The notes under the pieces are model-generated. The model was not told where the DNA came from. It did not search any database and saw nothing but the letters and a program-made list of their open reading frames with translations. From positions 32,001 to 96,000 of the IMG/VR virus record IMGVR_UViG_3300001598_000036: 64,000 nucleotides of DNA, one strand, 5' to 3'. Below, piece by piece: positions 30,449 through 63,999 of the stretch; positions within the stretch are counted from its first letter, which is position 1; every line of letters begins with the position of its first letter. The position numbers and the translations under genes are program-made. The DNA comes from a virus. Lineage: Duplodnaviria; Caudoviricetes.

Positions 30449-33400
30449 TTAATCACATTTACTCCATCCACAAGATTTACATATATTACATCCGCCTTCA
30501 AAAATTAATGGCGCTCCACAACTTGGACATTTTGGTTCCCATACTTTTTCATCATATACTACGGGATTTATTTTATACTTTATATCTTCTGAAAGTTTTA
30601 TTGACTTTTCTGATTTAGTAAAATTTTCTTTTGGTTTTAATTCTTTACCTTGAAAATCTTCCCACATTTCTTTAATTGCATATCCAATAGCCATTGGACA
30701 ACAAGAGCCTTTACTTGTATCTTTTTGTATTGCCGCACGTCTTGCATATGATGGACAAATTCCAGTTGACATAAGTTGGTCATATATATCTGTTACTGAT
30801 ATACCACCTCGCGCAGATAACGACATCATTCTTGAAAGTGCAATCATAAAATTGTTACAACCACCAGTAGAACCTTTACTAAGATATAATTCTACCAAAT
30901 CGCTACTATCTGCATCAAAAAAAGCAGTACAGTGAAGGGAACCGCATCCTGTCATAAGTTTACGCTTTAAACCAATAACATTATCGTGTGCTGATTTGAT
31001 TTCTCCTCTCTTAAATATATGAGTTTCACCAGAAATCATTTCGGTATATTCTTCTGTTTCTTCGGAATCTGCTACTAATATTGCCGCTCTCTTACATCCT
31101 GAACGGAAAATAGTAATTCCTTTCAATCCTTTTTCCCAAGCATACAAATATAAGTCGTATATTTCTTCAAGAGTAATTTCTTTTGGAAGATTAATAGTTG
31201 AACTGATAGCTGTATCTACGTGTCTTTGCATTATAGCTTGGATATCAATTCTATCTTTCCATTTTAAATCTGAAGAACAGACAAAAAAGTCAGGAAGTTC
31301 GAAATCTGCATCAGCATCTAATCCTAATATACTCTTATAATCAGTAATAGCTTTACTTTCTATATTATAACTATCTTTAAGGTTATCTGTATTTCTTGTA
31401 TAGTATAAACTAAACTCCGGTTCACATCCTCCAGTTACACCAAGCATCGTTCCTATCGAACCAGTCGGCGCGATACTAAGTAAGCTACAATTTCTTAATT
31501 TTCTATGTTTTAAATGTTTGATTTCCTCAGGAGTAAAATTGTCTTCAATAATCTTACTATCCCATATTGATGGATTGAATCCAGGAAATGCTCCTCTTTT
31601 TTCTGCTAAATCAGTATCATAAATTACTGCTGTTCTAAACATAAAGTCAAATAACATTTCTGTAAACTCTTTAGCTTCTTTAGAACCGTATGTTATTCCT
31701 AATTTAAATAACATATTAGCATATCCCATTACTCCAAGTCCAATATTTCTATACATCTTAGATGCTTTTTTCTGTTCTTTTAAAGCGTGTCTTTCAAGAT
31801 TTTCATCTATAATTGTATCAAGACCTTCTATTGCTATTTCTATTGCTTTTTCAAAAGAAGGGAAATCAAATTTAGCATCTGGTTGATATGGATTAATTAC
31901 GAATTCATTTAAGTTTAAACTACCAAGATTGCAACATCCATTTTTCATTAATGGTTGTTCGCCGCCGATACCACACTTAGTTTCCTAAGCCGCATTGCTG
32001 CGTTGTAGTCTGGACTATATCTTCCTTTATTCTATCGAAGAATAAAGGGTGCGCACTTATTTTGATAAAAATATTATTATATGTTTCTGAAACAAATCCT
32101 CGTTTTTGCAACCCTTTTCCTCTATATCCTAAATCCATTTTATATAATAGAGAAGGAAAATAATCATAAAAGTAAGTATAAATTAGAGATATTAATTGTT
32201 GTCCATCTTTAACAGATATTTGTATTCTGTATTGATTATTACGACATCGATTAATTATTTTTGTTTCAAAATGTTTGGTTATTTCTAATTCTTGTTTTAT
32301 TTTCAAATGTTCTTCATAAGTAAAATTATCAGTACAAAATTGTATTCTACGATTTTTTGCTCCTCCGTCAGTTCCAAGCCCTTTTTGAACTAATACGGTG
32401 GTTCCATCATCAGCATACCACATAGCGTATCCTAAATTAGTTAGTTTTTTAACTGTATTTAATGGGTAAATTTTTTTTCCATTATGATAAAATAGTTTTT
32501 CTAATTTATTAATATATGGATGCGGCCCTGCTATTAATTTATATGCTTTTTTATGATGAACACCTTTTTTATCGGTATATTCTGGTTCTTCATTAATATA
32601 AACCGCGCAATTAGGTAAATAACGTTTGATAAAATTAGCTTTAAAATCTATTAAATCTTTGGATATTTGATGAGAACAAAAACGATGATTGTGTATGTCT
32701 CCATCTCCCAATAAACACCCATAAAAAAAACTTCTTACTTCTGTATGATTAATTTTCATATTATTTTCGTTATACTATAGTATAACGCCTCCTTTTTTAT
32801 CAAATTAGTCTCTGAACGTTTTTCCTTTTCAGGAAACTTCGCTGCTGATTGCCCAATTTTTATATTTTTTAAACATTCAAGCTTATTCTTACGAATTACT
32901 TTGTAGTATATAAAACTTAAGGGGTTTCCAGCAATTCACGCACTTTTACATCCGCACTTAATTTACGGATTAGTAGTTTCAACTACATAATCTTTTACGT
33001 GTTCCATTAAATTATAATTTCTTAATTTATTTGTAAATAAACATCCTGGTTCTCCATAATCATATGCAGATTCAATCATTAATTCATATAATTTTCTAGG
33101 ACAAATCTCATATTCAATAGTATGTCCTTCATATTCCCTACAAATTGTATAAGTATCATAGGTATCATTTTTTAATGAGTTTCTAATTTTAAACATAAAA
33201 TCATTATCTATTTCAAGTGAAAAATTAGCTGCATTAAATTCTTCCAAATCAGTTTTCGCTGTAATAAACATTGATGCTTCTTTGTGAGTAATATCTAATG
33301 ACATCATTAATGCACCTTTTCGCGCCCCTCCTTGAGATACTCCTTGAGTAGTAGTATTAAATATTCTCATAAAAGGCAAAATTCCATCTGATACGTAGTC

Positions 33401-33754
33401 TTCTCCAACTTGTGTGCCAGATGGCCTAATCTTCGTAAGAGATATGCCTTGACCACCTTGCGCTTTATATGTAAGAGCAAGATTCGTATTTGTTTGCATT
33501 ATATCTTTAAGACTATCTTTTACGTATCCGCTTGAATAACAGTTAAACATTGAGCCTTGTCTATCAGTACCTCTATTTGAGAGCGCACGACCGCCAAATA
33601 AGAATTTTCTTTCTTCAATAAGCTGTCTTAATTTTTCATTACCGCCGCTAACTCTATCAAAAAATTCATCAAGCGTTTCGTTATGATACTGATATTTTTC
33701 TTTGAATATATCTTGTCCTACTTGATAATCGCCTAACCATTCTTGTAAATTCAT
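30449..33754 (-). CDS. nrdJ: Class II (B12-dependent) ribonucleotide reductase, spliced (exons 33754-32965, 31965-30449; 768 aa)
   Basis: Joining restores TNPCGEQPL; CNLGSLNL, RNIGLGVMG, IAPTGS motifs; C-terminal Zn ribbon CGWSKC. Confidence 0.9.
31966..32964 (-). mobile_element. Group I intron in nrdJ (999 nt)
   Basis: Exon ends in U with P1 AUCCGU/GCGGAU; intron ends in G; P7 GACUA/UAGUC; splits the TGC catalytic Cys codon. Confidence 0.9.
31977..32759 (-). CDS. Intron-encoded LAGLIDADG homing endonuclease
   Basis: FYGCLLGDG and AMWYADDG motifs; no in-frame TGA. Confidence 0.85.
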   Translation of the reverse strand: MKINHTEVRSFFYGCLLGDGDIHNHRFCSHQISKDLIDFKANFIKRYLPNCAVYINEEPEYTDKKGVHHKKAYKLIAGPHPYINKLEKLFYHNGKKIYPLNTVKKLTNLGYAMWYADDGTTVLVQKGLGTDGGAKNRRIQFCTDNFTYEEHLKIKQELEITKHFETKIINRCRNNQYRIQISVKDGQQLISLIYTYFYDYFPSLLYKMDLGYRGKGLQKRGFVSETYNNIFIKISAHPLFFDRIKEDIVQTTTQQCGLGN

Positions 33755-52900: not shown

Positions 52901-54655
52901 ATAAGTAGAAATTTTATTAAATTCCTATATTAAAATCAAGTTTTTCATAAAATTTTATAAACGGTCAGGTTTCTCCGTTAGCCGCGAATGCGACCCCGCT
53001 GGTTAGCGGAAAGGTAATAACACAGGCTATATTACTAACCAATTCCCATAGTTGGATTAACTATATTATAATAACCTTTTGATGATAATACCATTGGATA
53101 CTGTTCAGTATCATCATAATTATCTTTCCATTCTTCAATAGTATCTTTCTTAATATCTTTAAATAGATATTCAGCTAAAGGAGAAAGTCTTGAGCTAGTA
53201 TATCTCGCGGCTGACCAATTACCCGGCGCCATAAGATTACCATACGAACCTTCTACTTCTACCAATGGATATCTCATCGCAAAAGGCTGACCAGCACGCA
53301 TAATAACTCCTTCGCAAGAACTGTCCAATAGTTATTAACTGTAAGCTTTTTATCTTACACTCTGGAGATTTCTCTCATTTTCATCGGTTAGTTAATTCTA
53401 ACCCAGTTTAGCATATCTTTTTAATTTCGTCTGCCAACTTCTGTTTTCTATCAAGTGAAATACAATTATTATATCATAAATAATTTGCTATTTTTTTTCT
53501 ATCTGATTTAGAAGTATATTCTATACGATATATAACACCATGTTTCCCTATATTTTTTGGAATAATATCTAATGTTTGATAAAAATGTTGTTGTATTTTA
53601 TACAACAAATCATAACTACCTATTAATCCTATATTAGATAAATTTTGTTTTATATATCCATCTCCATCATAATAACCTCTAATAAAATCAGTAGGAAAAT
53701 CTGTTTCTATTCACTGTTCTTTTCCCGATTTTTGTGGTTTAATACCTAAATTAAATAAATCTTTATGAGTTTCACTACAACATAATTGTATATGAGCTAA
53801 TTTATTACCTGTCGTTGGATGTGTAGTAATTTGTACTATATCTTGTTGTGCCTCAACAAAATTAGCAAATTTATATAAATGTTTTTTATCTTCTGCACTA
53901 ATATCAATAGAGAAATGTCCTATAAAACTATTTTTATTTGTTAAATGTAAACATCCATCTGCTAAGATAAAACCTAATCAATAAGCTTTTTCTGGTGTAT
54001 CAATAGTTTTAAATATTTCTCTATTTCATCCAACATTATAAGTTTTTCTTTGAACATCATTTCAATATAATTTTTTAATTTGCAGAAAATCTTTTTCTTC
54101 TATATAATATGGCTGTCCATGTTTATAATTTTCTTGTATATTTAATCAACCTTTTTTAACTCATTTGCAAATAGTTTGTGAATTAATATTGTATTTTTTT
54201 TGTAATTGTGAAGTTGTCATTTTCATTATATCTTTCTCCTATTTGTGTCTATATTTAAGTAGAAACTTATAGATGTAAGATATAATTTTAAAAAATTATT
54301 GGGGCCTCGTGGTAGGATTATATCTTTTCACCTACTATGCGTTGCGGCTGGAATAATTTTATTATTCCTTCACCTCTGATTGGCATATCGTTAGACTTAG
54401 CTTCCCAGATTTTTTCCCCAATTTAGACACGGCAACTTATTTACCGTGTATATACATACGCATAGCTGAACCTATTGCTTTAAGAGTTTTCTTGAATGGT
54501 TTATTATGTACGAACTTATCTGTTTCCAAACAATAAAAGATTTGACGTGCTGATGGTTTAAGACAATCACGTGCATCTACAAGTGCGCGCGATTGAAGCA
54601 CGGCTCCAGCATAAGCTGTAAAACTATCTTCAATTATAGGTTTTAAATTACTCAT
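49964..54655 (-). CDS. gyrA: Type II topoisomerase subunit A, three exons (54655-54443, 53325-53038, 51805-49964; 780 aa)
   Basis: RALVDARDCLKP, HG|DSS, AARYT (catalytic Tyr), GIG|VGAASSIP, PDFPTG, C-terminal pinwheel repeats. Confidence 0.9.
51905..52858 (-). CDS. Intron-encoded GIY-YIG endonuclease, 317 aa (TGA=Trp)
   Basis: SGIYQI...IYIGRS..IKHRI[W]EH; frame continuous into ORF 51905. Confidence 0.82.
52893..52908 (-). promoter_or_regulatory. Intron-internal putative late promoter CTACTTATAAATAGAA
   Basis: Identical to 19722-19737; ~35 nt before the endonuclease ATG. Confidence 0.6.
53408..54226 (-). CDS. Intron-encoded LAGLIDADG endonuclease, 272 aa (7 TGA=Trp; absent from ORF track)
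   Basis: EKAY[W]LGFILADG and FIRGYYDGDG motifs; SD AGGAG. Confidence 0.85.
54247..54262 (-). promoter_or_regulatory. Intron-internal putative late promoter (CTACTTAAATATAGAC)
   Basis: Repeated motif just before the endonuclease SD. Confidence 0.5.
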
Positions 54656-55179: not shown

Positions 55180-58066
55180 TTATTCCCTCAATTCTGAAAA
55201 ATCAATTTGATTAAATACATATTTTCTTCTTGGCTCTATATCTGCACCCATCAGTTGTTCAAGCAACACCAAACTATCACTATCAGGCTTCAATACTTCC
55301 ATTCTTTGATACTCTTCCGAAAACATCGAATTCTTCGCCTGTGCGGCAGACAATGCACCAAGTCCCTTATTACGCTGTACTTCTCCTTTTACAGTTCCTC
55401 TATTATTAAATTCTTCATCGGTAAAATAATAGAGTTCTTTCTTATTCTGCTTAATAATATACAACGGAGAACGAAGCCAACATAATCTTCCTTCGTTCAA
55501 AAACTCAGGTGCTAAATATCGTAATGCGGCCATTATTAAAAGACCTATGTGCGAGCCATCACTCAGTTATTCCATTATTTCTAATGGCCTAGACTATATT
55601 TTACCCAATAGGGAATGCTCTTTCCCAATACGTATCAATAGTATCAGTACTCCCGGTCTCACCCAGGATAGTCGTTACAGGCTTCTCTTATCAATCCATT
55701 CTTTCTTTTTCTTACTATAAACTGGTAAATGTTTATAGTGTCTTCCTCATAAAATCGCTTGTAGTGTTTGATATTTTAATCTATCTTCATAATTTTTATA
55801 AATATCTTTTGCTGATTCATTTACATATCTTCTACGACATTCCATAACTTCCTCATCAGTAAGAACTGCCATTTCTGATGCACCGCCATTAGTCGCTTGA
55901 TACATATAATATTCTTTATTTTCTTTGGTATAAACTTCTGATCTAATATCTTTTCACGTTGTTCCATCTCATATAGAAGCAAACGCTCCAAAACTAATTC
56001 TATCTTTGAATAATTCATAAATTTCTTTTCTACGTTTATGTTGGTTATAACAATCTCTAATATATTCTACATCTTTATTAGTTAAATTAGTTCGTCCGTT
56101 ATTTTCTCCTCGACTATCTCCTCCGCCAGGATTACAATTATAGCCAAATCCTTTATATGTGTTATAATATTCTATTCAATAGATTTCTTTTTCATCTAAT
56201 TCTTTCAAAGAACATTCTTCAATAGTTTCATATGTAAAAGCGTCTATACCATATTTACGAATTGCTCTATCGATTGCTAAATCAGTTTTATTTTGATGTT
56301 CTGAAATTCTTCTTTGAATATCATTAGATTGACCAATATAAGCTTTTCCATTTTCTTTTTTAGTGATTTTATATATTCCTATCATCACAGCACCTCCTGT
56401 AATAATAAGAATGGATTGATTTAGATTCCCACGGTATTACCATATCCTTATAGGACTTAGGCTCTCTTACCACCTTAATCTTTCGATTTAGTTGACCGTT
56501 AGCCTACTCTATATGCTACCCATCCTTACATATATAAGTAGACCCTCTTGATAAAGAGTAAAGCATTTTAGGACAGTTTCGTTAAATTCTATCCGCATCT
56601 GTACAAATAGCAATACGCCCGTACCGCAGTTTATCACTACGGTACTTGCCGGGGACTATATTCATCGCCGACATAAGCGTTTTAATTTCCTCATTCTGAA
56701 ATATCTTTTCTTCTGGATGTGCAAGACAATTCAAAATCTTACCTTTAATAGCAAGTATTCCATATTTTGATACATCGCGCGCCATCGACATAGAAGCTGC
56801 AGCGGAATCTCCTTCTACAATCAACAAAGTAGAATTCTGCCCAAGAAATTCAGCATCTTTCAGTTTATCCGAACTAAATACTTTCTTCTTCTGATTCTTC
56901 TCTATATCTTTTGTCGCGTTCAGTATATTCTGCCTAGCTCGTTCAGCTGCGGCTTCTGCTCTTGCGACTTTATTTAATAATTCAATTACTTTATTAAAAT
57001 CATCTTTGTATCTAATAGCAAAATCTTTTAATGCATCGCTAATTGCGGTAGATGTTGCGCTTCTAGCTTCTGGATTAGCCAAAGCAGTTTTTTGTTGATT
57101 AGTAAATTGTCCCATTTTTACTTTTACACTTACATAACCATCTAATACATTACGAATAGTATCTCCATCGTATTTAGATTTTGCAAGAGAATTAAAAGTT
57201 CTTGTTAAAGAAGATTTAAATCCACTAATAAAAGCTCCGCCATCTGGCATATATAAATTATTAGCATATCCTCTTATTTCTCCATTTTTACTAACCCATT
57301 GTAAAGCTAAATCTACTTTACAATCATCAGTTTCATAATGATAACTAAAAGGTTTGGAAAGAGGATTGGGATTACATAATCCATCTGCTAAACCATTTTT
57401 TGAATAAAATTTTTCTATTTTTTTATTATCTATTTTTAATTCTATTGATAATCCAGTAGAGAACATAGACATTTCTTTTAAAGATTGTTTTAATGATTCT
57501 ATATCAATAAATACGTCACCATATACTTTAGAAGAAGGAACATATTTTATTAAAGTACCTGTTTGATTATTTTCTCTTTCTCCAATTTTTTCTATAACTT
57601 CAGAAGTAGCTCGCGCGCCTTCTTCGTCAGATATAAATTTTTGAGAATATATTTTTTTATCTCTCCATACAGTTACTTCTAACCAATCAGCAGTATGGCA
57701 TACAATTTTATTACCTTCTCCATTAATACCTACAGCACTGCTATATACTCCTTCTTGATGCTTTCCTCCTGAATGAGGGACAAGAAATGCTGCAGTTAAT
57801 GAATTCATTCCATCTTCTCTAATTCCTACTGGGATTCCACGCATATTGTCTTCTACGGAAATTTCTCTAGTTTTAGTATTTAGAGAAATTCTCATATATG
57901 GATTTTTTGGTTTGTATACTTCATATTCATCTTGAACATTTACTATTAATTCTCTTAATCCAAGATTTATTGCTTCTTGTCTATCTGCTGATAAATACAT
58001 TCCAATTTTTTCTCTAAATGCTCTACCAGCTGATAAAGATACGATATCATTAGCAGTATAATTCAT
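55180..58066 (-). CDS. gyrB: Type II topoisomerase subunit B, spliced (exons 58066-56591, 55563-55180; 619 aa)
   Basis: EDNMRGIP, HSGGK, VEGDSA, KGKILN; joining restores DADSDGSHI; RNKGLG. Confidence 0.9.
55564..56590 (-). mobile_element. Group I intron in gyrB (1027 nt)
   Basis: P1 GGAU/GUCC, terminal G, P7 GACUA/UAGUC. Confidence 0.88.
55675..56385 (-). CDS. Intron-encoded GIY-YIG endonuclease, 236 aa (4 TGA=Trp)
   Basis: IGIYKI...YIGQS...EKEIY[W]IEYY...GYN. Confidence 0.83.
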
Positions 58067-59776: not shown

Positions 59777-59805
59777 TTGACAAAATTGGAAAATTTTTAT
59801 ATAAT
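59777..59805 (+). promoter_or_regulatory. Sigma70-type early promoter for the ORF-tRNA unit
   Basis: TTGACA-17 nt-TATAAT. Confidence 0.8.
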
Positions 59806-59832: not shown

Positions 59833-60024
59833 ATGACTTTTAGTAAAAATAGAGTTAAGTTATATTGTGATGCTAGTGTATTTCCAGAAATTGAGATGTT
59901 TTTATTTGGACAAGAATGGACTGAGAAACCTAGTATTGATTATATAGATATAGAAACTGGATATGAAATTTATTCTTATCGTATTATGCGCGAAGGAGAT
60001 AAATATTATATTGTGGTTGATTAA
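59833..60024 (+). CDS. Small hypothetical protein (63 aa) co-transcribed with the tRNA
   Basis: SD AGGAGG; start downstream of the promoter; stop 3 nt before the tRNA. Confidence 0.65.
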   Translation: MTFSKNRVKLYCDASVFPEIEMFLFGQEWTEKPSIDYIDIETGYEIYSYRIMREGDKYYIVVD

Positions 60025-60027
60025 TAC

Positions 60028-60324
60028 AGGGGTGGCTGTAAGACAGGGGCTGGTCTTCAACCAGTTTAGGATTGTCTAAATAATTGGTGCTTTATATTGG
60101 AAACTTTATAAATGTACGCCGCTAATTCGGGGAAGGCTAAGTTTTTTAATATGCTAATCCCGAGCTAGGACGCAATTCGCGACCGAGTGTAGAGACTTTA
60201 CACGGCGCGCCTAAGTCATAAGATATGGCGAAGAGAAAGTCCAGACTACAAACAGAAATGGCTATGAAAATAGTAGTAGTAAGCAAAACCAATCTACGAG
60301 GAGCGTTACCTTGCACCCCTGCCA
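60028..60324 (+). tRNA. Intron-containing tRNA-Trp, predicted anticodon UCA (opal suppressor); exons 60028-60057 and 60284-60324
   Basis: Perfect acceptor stem AGGGGTG/CACCCCT, G73, encoded CCA; spliced arm TGGT-CT-TCA-AA-ACCA; 5-bp T stem; resembles the Bacillus-type tRNA-Trp frame. Confidence 0.8.
60058..60283 (+). mobile_element. ORF-less group I intron (226 nt) in the tRNA anticodon
   Basis: P AAUUCGGGGAA / Q AAUCCCGAGC, P3 CGCCG/CGGCG, R GUAGAGACUUU, S AAGAGAAAGUCC (P7 GACUU/AAGUC), terminal G. Confidence 0.88.
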
Positions 60325-60347: not shown

Positions 60348-60380
60348 AAGAAAAGACGAGTATTTCTACTCGTCTTTTTT
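60348..60380 (+). terminator. Intrinsic terminator after the tRNA (possibly bidirectional)
   Basis: AAAAGACGAGTA-tttc-TACTCGTCTTTT followed by Ts. Confidence 0.75.
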
Positions 60381-62870: not shown

Positions 62871-63875
62871 CTAATATTTTTTAAAGCTTCAATAAAAGCC
62901 TTTAGCCTTTTTTGTTCGTCCATTACATACATCACTAATTGAAGAAGCACTTTTTAATCCAACTGATTTAGTAGCTTCCGCAATAGATTCATATTCATTC
63001 AGCAATACCCAATTTGTATTATATTGATAAACTTTTTTCTTATTTTTATTTTCTATATTTTTTATTTTTTCTTTTATAACTATTTCATTAGAATCAAAAC
63101 TTCAAATATATCCTCCTGAACTTGGATATTCGTTAGAACAAGCCCGAGAAATACCTGAACGATTAATTCCAGTATTTTCTGATGCTTCTTTAATACTATT
63201 AAAACTATTAATTAATTTACCTTGTAAACTATATTGATAAACTATTTTTGTATTAATAGGTTTACGTTTTTTTAAAACATCACTTTTTCTTTGTTTAATT
63301 TCTTCATCACTAATTCCTAAATTATTTAATCTTTTATGTAGAGTATTACCACCATATATTTTATATATTTGATATACGCCTTTTCCTTCTTGCCATAAAG
63401 ATAATAATTTTTCATCGCTTATTGTATAACGATTTTGAAAACTTCTATTTTTTATTTCATCCGCAGATATATTTAAATCATATTTTAAAATTTTACTAAT
63501 AGAAGAAGCATCATTACCAGTAGTTTTTATAATTTCTCCTTCTGACAATCCTAAATCTCATAATTCTTTAATATATTTTCTATCAATTCTTATTCCTTTT
63601 TCTCCACCTAAAGTAGAATTATAACCATTATTATAGGAATCATAATAATTGATTCAATAAATTTCTCGTTCATCTAAAATATTATTCTCACATTCTTCTA
63701 ATAATTCTATATAAAAATGTTCTGCTCCGTATTTACGTATAGCTCTATAAAAATGTAAATTTAATCTTTTACTATCAGATAAATGTTTTTGGAATCTTCT
63801 TTTTAATTGTTGTACTGTTTGTCCTATATATACTTTATCATTTATATCATTTTTAATTATATAAATATAACCCAT
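62871..63875 (-). CDS. Free-standing GIY-YIG endonuclease with two NUMOD1-like repeats, 334 aa (4 TGA=Trp)
   Basis: GYIYII...YIGQT...REIY[W]I...GYN; two VYQY...SI.EA...IS..C....GY/F.[W] repeats. Confidence 0.82.
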
Positions 63876-63876
63876 A

Positions 63877-63999
63877 TTATCCTCCACTATTCATATTATA
63901 TCCATATTTATCTGTTTCAAAAAATTTAATATAATATTTTTCCTTTTCTGACAATTCTTCTTTATCTACTATTTCAATTATTGAAAAAGTAAAATTATC
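63877..63999 (-). CDS. GIY-YIG-like protein, C-terminal part (5' partial)
   Basis: NFTFSIIE...EKEKYYI...YGYN..SGG. Confidence 0.6.
   Translation of the reverse strand, partial: DNFTFSIIEIVDKEELSEKEKYYIKFFETDKYGYNMNSGG

Follow-up and report, generated by a model that had tools for sequence, protein, structure and literature searches.

The window analysed here is a stretch of 64,000 nucleotides, bases 32001-96000 of a 126,454-bp IMG/VR virus record. The record has 31.5% G+C and is rated 100% complete by CheckV. A compact transcription unit in this window holds a small ORF and a predicted tRNA gene whose anticodon is interrupted by a group I intron. The features of the unit are listed below by window position.

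59777..59805, plus strand: sigma-70 consensus promoter, TTGACA-17 nt-TATAAT, with 12/12 consensus matches
59833..60024, plus strand: 63-aa ORF, transcribed together with the tRNA and equipped with a GGAGG ribosome-binding site; it ends 3 nt 5' of tRNA nt 1
60028..60057, plus strand: predicted tRNA 5' exon (nt 1-34), with acceptor strand AGGGGUG (60028-34), D hairpin (60036-39/60043-46, loop AAG), anticodon-stem strand (60050-54) and C32 U33 U34 (60055-57)
60058..60283, plus strand: group I intron of 226 nt with no internal ORF, last base G, recognised by its RF00028 match and family structure
Within the intron, plus strand, 5' elements: L1 hairpin 60065-69/60076-80; guide sequence 60084-89; P2 60091-112 (GAAA loop)
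Within the intron, plus strand, helices: P3 60117-21/60203-07; P4 60127-32/60158-63; P5 60135-37/60153-55; P6 60165-69/60183-87
Within the intron, plus strand, 3' helices and end: P7 60192-97/60238-42; P8 60208-11/60227-30; P9 60261-65/60270-74 (GAAA loop); terminal G 60283
60084..60089, plus strand: internal guide sequence, UUG followed by GUG, placed by homology in a 17-sequence alignment
60284..60324, plus strand: predicted tRNA 3' exon, with C35 A36 A37 A38 (60284-87), anticodon-stem strand (60288-92), variable loop UCUA, T stem (60297-301/60309-13), T loop AGCGUUA (60302-08), acceptor strand CACCCCU (60314-20), G73 (60321) and CCA (60322-24)
60349..60380, plus strand: intrinsic terminator; the terminator signal is readable on both strands

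The first-pass annotation of this DNA had given the unit its own sigma70 promoter and terminator, and both were recovered at 59777-59805 (12/12) and 60349-60380. Its coordinates for the acceptor strands, G73, CCA and the 226-nt insert ending in G were all right. Perfect promoters of the form TTGACA-N16-18-TATAAT occur 12 times in the 126 kb genome, the promoter of this unit among them. They are grouped in the early region, in the replication region and near the right end, and A-rich spacers follow most of them. When 80 related loci were searched for synteny on the gyrB side, the promoter motif alone recurred.

The insert had been taken for a group I intron from its P/Q/R/S elements, and Infernal with the group I model agrees. 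A sensitive Rfam run on the region matched RF00028 (Intron_gpI) at 60064-60265 over the full model, 1-253, with 56.4 bits against a gathering cut-off of 50 and an E-value of 1e-13. The match at the locus was reproduced in a genome-wide covariance search. A whole-window Rfam run at the gathering cut-off did not detect the group I intron, probably due to speed filters. The structure was further examined in a family alignment of 17 pre-tRNA cores, in which pairs were counted against the structure drawn on this phage's sequence. Across the 17 sequences, 90.5% of the cells were paired, compared with 71% in shuffles and less than 41% when the partners were slid, and compensatory changes were found in 36 of the 50 pairs. 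Paired cells amounted to 96.5% in P3, 93.5% in P4/P5, 100% in P7, 100% in P8 and 92.9% in P9, with changes on both sides in most pairs; P6, a variable region, was paired in only 54% of cells. Positions 60058-60283 are a real group I intron. Its core is that of an ordinary small group I intron, with no ligand- or protein-binding addition visible, and self-splicing would be expected of it.

The splice sites were read from the pairing between the guide sequence and the exons. The wobble at the 5' splice site is U60057.G60087, and U.G is present at this place in 16 of the 17 sequences. On the other side of P1, G60089 pairs with C60055, and U60088 faces U60056 as a mismatch. P1 is thus 3 positions long with a central U-U mismatch, a trait common to the whole subfamily that counts against the reading preferred below. 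In P10, UUG at 60084-86 pairs with CAA at 60284-86, the first 3 bases of the 3' exon. The pair between the +1 base and the guide covaries with the host gene: 13 tRNA(UCA) hosts have C-G there, and hosts of the Leu(UAA) and CUA kinds have A-U or G-U. Some columns of the alignment were set by the search patterns; the guide base was free in L122, L125, L126, L127 and L131. Because the guide/exon pairing of the 17 sequences supports them, the splice sites are placed between U60057 and C60058 and between G60283 and C60284. Joining U60057 to C60284, as was proposed from the letters alone, gives the 7-nt loop CUUCAAA with anticodon UCA, and both sites are fixed by the alignment. The guide base thus follows the anticodon (G goes with C35, U with A35), which shows that the introns have adapted to suppressor tRNAs and are not dead insertions.

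The first reading had carried a caveat of its own, that the best P1 seen by eye would move the wobble one base earlier. This is settled for the proposed site: U60057.G60087 is supported by homology, and GGUCUU/AGGAUU has no family support. The by-eye P1, GGUCUU (60052-57) with AGGAUU (60068-73) and the wobble at U60056, was 53.5% paired, the same as shuffled and slid controls, and its segment belongs to the variable hairpin 60065-69/60076-80. A 5-bp P10, UAAGC/GUUUA, which joins U60056 to U60280 and leaves a 10-nt loop, was dropped along with it. A hairpin that mimics the anticodon stem, in which the 5' strand pairs with intron nt 3-7 (CUGGU/ACCAG), was 74.6% paired, a value reached by 3 of 500 shuffles; this is weak support. 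A protein-coding host for the intron was also considered. The upstream ORF has its stop codon at 60022-24, ahead of the splice site, and the spliced frame would add only about 25 codons. The protein-coding host was rejected and the tRNA preferred because of the family evidence.

The joined exons form an RNA of 71 nt with anticodon UCA, A1-U72, G73 and an encoded CCA. Its 5' half runs through the acceptor strand AGGGGUG, a G, the D hairpin CUGU-AAG-ACAG, GGG and the anticodon arm CUGGU-CUUCAAA-ACCAA. Its 3' half continues with the variable loop UCUA, the T arm CGAGG-AGCGUUA-CCUUG, the acceptor strand CACCCCU, a G and CCA. The geometry is that of a tRNA, with cloverleaf stems, a 4-bp D hairpin, a 7-nt loop with U33 and purine 37, and a 3' CCA. 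Among the pairs fixed by geometry in the acceptor, anticodon and T stems, 16 of 17 are standard. This pairing is not due to chance, since no exon shuffle in 300,000 exceeded 15. A sequence profile built from canonical relatives gave the spliced RNA 10.3 bits, compared with a maximum of 6.5 in 5,000 shuffles.

Several features of this RNA count against its being a functional tRNA. The D loop AAG lacks G18G19, the T loop AGCGUUA lacks T-Psi-C, and C60050 stands opposite A60292 at the top of the anticodon stem. The cloverleaf has a free energy of -20.7 kcal/mol against -22.7 for the minimum-energy fold, and the fold z-score is -0.33. ARAGORN reported no tRNA here in the window, in the genome with the intron option, or in any spliced combination tried. 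RF00005 gave no match at the locus, as is expected with the intron in place.

Comparison with related tRNAs places these oddities in a family. The acceptor AGGGGUG/CACCCCU-G-CCA is identical in 6 related contigs, which have ordinary D and T arms. The T stem differs from these canonical same-acceptor relatives at nearly every position and is still paired, which indicates selection for pairing. Similar unusual traits are found in L124, another intron-split tRNA(UCA) gene, which has D stem CCUGU/ACAGG, a small AG-containing loop (UUAGA, or UAG with an extra U-A pair) and T loop GGCAGUA. Compensatory changes separate the acceptor and T stems of L124 from those of this tRNA. From these comparisons we argue that the spliced RNA would be a working though odd tRNA, not debris. 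In a pattern scan for the D arm, nearly all matches were chance matches in coding regions, and the exact 3'-exon pattern had 0 matches in IMG/VR. The host gene is not a tRNA-Leu(UAA): its 3' exon begins with CAAA and not AAAA, its variable loop is short, and it has A1-U72 and G73. A separate intact tRNA-Leu(UAA) is present in the phage genome.

The genome has a use for a tRNA with this anticodon. Coverage by ORFs of at least 150 aa is 0.57 when the standard code is used, 0.80 when TGA is sense and 0.60 when TAG is sense. When ORFs with X at TGA were aligned to the standard-code relatives G002 and G003, in-frame TGA stood opposite W 78 times, and the next residue classes were mostly off-frame noise. 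These counts show that the phage reads TGA as Trp, as the initial reading of the late genes had supposed. ARAGORN and RF00005 found six ordinary tRNAs in the record. An uninterrupted tRNA(UCA) was not found in the record by ARAGORN, RF00005 or a scan for YUUCARN hairpins, so that the intronless suppressor elsewhere in the genome, which the first-pass annotation had named as evidence to be sought against its claim, did not appear. A weak RF00005 match at genome positions 31929-32008 lies within a coding region and was set aside. Neither a phage TrpRS gene nor a release-factor gene was found in the genome. The split tRNA is the only candidate UGA decoder that the genome offers. The record is linear and without terminal repeats, so that a second tRNA past its ends is possible, and this is counted against the preferred reading.

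The use of TGA varies among the genes around the unit. Three free-standing homing endonuclease genes (LAGLIDADG_3 and two GIY-YIG) lie near it on the minus strand at 53408-54226, 55675-56388 and 62871-63920, with 7, 4 and 5 in-frame TGA codons in that order. The gyrB and UvrD-like helicase genes beside the unit have 0 in-frame TGA. GyrB proteins that are 77-80% identical occur under three codes: TGA is sense in this phage, TAG is sense in G001, which has a tRNA(CUA), and the code is standard in G002 and G003 (L104-L121). Many further relatives are TAG-recoded in appearance.

The amino acid carried by the tRNA was considered from its identity elements. The determinants for a Bacillus-type (B. 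subtilis) TrpRS are G73, A1-U72, G5-C68, C35 and A36, and all of them are present in the spliced tRNA. Charging with Trp by the host TrpRS is thus predicted. The gene had earlier been matched to Firmicute tRNA-Trp; the acceptor features are indeed Trp-like, but the whole is not a normal Firmicute tRNA-Trp, as the D arm and the T loop are strongly reduced.

The upstream 63-aa ORF helps to place the unit. A homolog was found in phage G036 (L137 7445-7615, minus strand), with 30% identity over 50 residues and a pairwise E-value of 1e-11. No more than 2 nt after the homolog comes an uninterrupted tRNA(UCA), and then a terminator. The order of promoter, small ORF, tRNA(UCA) and terminator matches that of the present unit, and this layout indicates that the same module exists without the intron. 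The G036 homolog has an in-frame TGA that aligns with a TGG in the ORF of this phage. The tRNA of L137 scores 42 bits with RF01852 (tRNA-Sec) against a gathering cut-off of 47, and ARAGORN draws it with a Sec-type structure. Eight more homologs of the small protein, of 50-70 aa, were found in public data. The model of the 63-aa protein has a pLDDT of 92 and consists of one strand, a helix and then three strands. The protein matched no Pfam family, no GenBank phage and no PDB fold. Other intronless tRNA(UCA) genes are present in phage contigs and metagenomes. A search of IMG/VR for an intronless allele of the CAAC-loop subfamily gave no match; metagenomes do have intronless tRNAs with the same loop, but these may be unrelated or come from organelles.

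The intron belongs to a family that is spread over other phages. Homologous introns, 74-82% identical over the 3' half and 75-82% over 60187-60290, are present in LR756501, a 735-kb phage, and in eight relatives found through gyrB; all of them lie in tRNA anticodon loops and end in GUAGUAAG before the 3' exon. IMG/VR was scanned with two patterns for the intron family followed by CAAA/CAAC, or preceded by GGUCUU, and the intron-plus-tRNA(UCA) pattern was matched in 13 and 19 contigs, respectively. When the relatives were spliced at CUU/CAA, ARAGORN called a tRNA(tca) in 15 of 18. The survey of other phages that had been suggested for the same split tRNA thus gave about 30 other phage contigs with the family in tRNA(UCA) genes. 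Most of these contigs are TGA-recoded: in the examples, ORF coverage is 0.41-0.66 under the standard code and about 0.9 when TGA is sense.

The same intron family is also present in class II tRNA-Leu(UAA), in class I UAA tRNAs and in tRNA(CUA) amber suppressors (L097, L098), and HNH endonuclease genes lie inside several intron copies. Because of the several host tRNA types and the internal HNH genes, the intron family is judged to be mobile, with the behaviour of a homing element. In L098 37-249 (G006) and L097 1488-1679 (G009), the spliced loop would be CUCUAAA with anticodon CUA, and the split falls after nt 35; one of these CUA tRNAs is class I and the other is class II with G73. Among the intron-split tRNA(UCA) genes, many (L122, L126, L127, L131, L124, L130) have a long variable arm and G73, and A1-U72 is present in all three tRNAs that were parsed by hand (L124, L126, L137). 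Several split tRNA(UCA) genes have the T loop AUCGUNA, in which A54/U58 are swapped with respect to the usual T54/A58.

The likely explanation of these results is an intron-split tRNA(UCA) that splices itself, is charged with Trp and reads UGA, with the intron as a mobile passenger and not as a regulatory device. Host RNA polymerase would transcribe the small ORF and the split tRNA gene from the consensus promoter. The intron, whose family is known above all from tRNA-Leu(UAA) and which is seated between anticodon nt 34 and 35, would then splice itself out and join U60057 to C60284, which would release the 71-nt tRNA with anticodon UCA, A1-U72, G5-C68, G73 and encoded CCA. The host Trp-tRNA synthetase would charge this tRNA, and the charged tRNA would decode in-frame UGA in phage genes as Trp. 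Most likely, the intron itself is a mobile passenger with a guide sequence adapted to this anticodon loop, and its practical effect is to conceal the gene from tRNA finders. In this account we infer the splicing, the Trp charging and the function of the reduced tRNA body on the ribosome.

The locus could also be a decayed relic, in which the tRNA gene is nonfunctional and UGA is read by a host tRNA, by a near-cognate tRNA-Trp(CCA) or by a tRNA beyond the contig ends. This is suggested by the 4-bp D hairpin with its 3-nt loop, by a T loop without T54, Psi55 and A58, by the failure of ARAGORN, by the fold z-score and by the lack of terminal repeats in the record. However, all four stems are paired (16/17 and a perfect D hairpin) in spite of the divergence of the T stem, which points to selection for pairing. 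In addition, the perfect promoter, the terminator, the encoded CCA and an intact, well-scoring intron have all been kept, the unusual features and compensatory differences are those described above for L124, and the essential late genes need UGA decoding. A relic is unlikely on this evidence. A working tRNA could also insert an amino acid other than Trp, for instance through Sec-like or Ser-type descent. The RF01852 match and Sec-type structure of the G036 counterpart, the long variable arms with G73 in many family members, and the D stem CUGU/ACAG, which resembles those of L124 and L137, lend something to this idea. SerRS needs a long variable arm, and with a 4-nt variable loop and a 7-bp acceptor stem this tRNA has no arm of that kind. 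The 78 alignments of TGA with Trp in standard-code relatives are far above the count for any other residue, and the full set of Bacillus-type TrpRS determinants also argues against a different amino acid, which makes such a tRNA highly improbable.

The first-pass annotation had proposed that the intron is a timer for a genetic-code switch: the transcript would be made early, the ribozyme would delay or condition maturation of the tRNA, and the late genes that contain TGA would be translated later. It fits this proposal that the split tRNA is the sole UGA decoder proposed in the genome and that the CAAC-loop subfamily had no intronless allele in IMG/VR. The promoter is of the same perfect sigma-70 class as those of the early and replication regions, and for this reason the transcript is probably early. 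Neither the missing intronless allele nor the promoter class, however, is evidence of a delay. Against the proposal, the matching G036 module has no intron, and intronless tRNA(UCA) genes exist elsewhere in phage contigs and metagenomes. The same family also sits in Leu(UAA), class I UAA and CUA tRNAs, and the HNH genes in several copies are the signature of a homing element. No ligand- or protein-binding addition, nor any other regulatory feature, was found on the ordinary small core. The group I introns of tRNAs need only seconds to minutes to splice in vitro, little time compared with an infection cycle. The timer was therefore not upheld and is regarded as improbable. In another reading, which is quite unlikely, the reduced tRNA and the upstream protein belong together as a dedicated suppressor module, in which a semi-orthogonal UGA decoder has its own helper and the intron may add a further layer of control. 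The helper may act, for example, in charging, in delivery or in competition with release factor 2, and the small AG-containing D loop, the RGCNNUA T loop and a Sec-like tRNA(UCA) descent as in L124 and L137 may be traits of such a module.

The closest known intron is the group I (IC3) intron of bacterial and plastid tRNA-Leu(UAA), class 'Leu.3Ug', with the pattern CUU/a...g/AAAA (Williams 2020, bioRxiv 10.1101/2020.01.27.920355). Like it, the present intron is inserted after CUU between anticodon nt 34 and 35, has a U.G wobble at -1 and a terminal G, and is small (about 200-250 nt) with GAAA-capped P2 and P9. Its 3' half is 74-77% identical to those of phage tRNA-Leu(UAA) introns, and it can be aligned with them along the whole length. 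It differs in that the host tRNA reads UGA, with C35 in place of A35, and the guide base that faces +1 is correspondingly G instead of U. It also has the U-U mismatch in the middle of P1, an extra hairpin between the 5' splice site and the guide sequence, and a phage with a recoded stop codon as its carrier.

TGA- and TAG-recoded phages with suppressor tRNAs have been described, including the TGA-to-Trp 'Agate' clade, and group I introns are mentioned there in protein genes only (Borges et al., 10.1101/2021.08.26.457843). Similarly, the present phage reads TGA as Trp in late and structural genes with its own predicted tRNA(UCA), and its close relatives use the standard code or TAG recoding. 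Unlike the suppressor tRNAs of that study, the gene here is interrupted in the anticodon and missed by tRNA finders, and its tRNA body is strongly reduced. Theta (HDV-like) ribozymes adjoin phage suppressor tRNAs and have been proposed as triggers of a code switch (PMC10879173, 2024). Here too, a recoded phage has a ribozyme physically linked to the maturation of its suppressor tRNA, but the predicted reaction is group I splicing inside the anticodon loop rather than self-cleavage beside the tRNA. With tRNA-Sec (RF01852), the spliced RNA shares UCA in the loop CUUCAAA, G73 and a D-arm hairpin with a small loop. In tRNA-Sec the acceptor has 8 bp, the D stem has 6 bp and a loop of 4 nt, and the variable arm is long; the spliced RNA differs by its 7-bp acceptor, its 4-bp D stem with a 3-nt loop and its 4-nt variable loop, and TGA here means Trp.

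The suppressor tRNA that recoding calls for is often missing from surveys of recoded phages, and in some of these phages it could not be found (PMC12386605, 2025). A group I intron in the anticodon offers an explanation for such recoded phages with a missing suppressor tRNA, because ARAGORN and the Rfam tRNA model are blind to the split gene and the intron model with default filters can miss it. An intron-split suppressor tRNA was not described in the literature searched. If the tRNA is functional, the phage would depend on one whose D arm and T loop are much reduced, which is relevant to tRNA biology and to the engineering of orthogonal suppressors. At L010 1363-1660 (LR756501) there is a clear intron-split tRNA-Leu(UAA) that ARAGORN did not detect, nor did Rfam when 3 kb were searched at E 0.1; counts of intron-split tRNA genes are probably too low in general.

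A second group I intron was noticed in the genome. It matches RF00028 with 41 bits at 32804-32936 and splits the gene for the large subunit of ribonucleotide reductase (window 30449-33754, minus strand) into the exons 32963-33754 and 30449-31948, with a LAGLIDADG endonuclease ORF at 31977-32759 within the intron.
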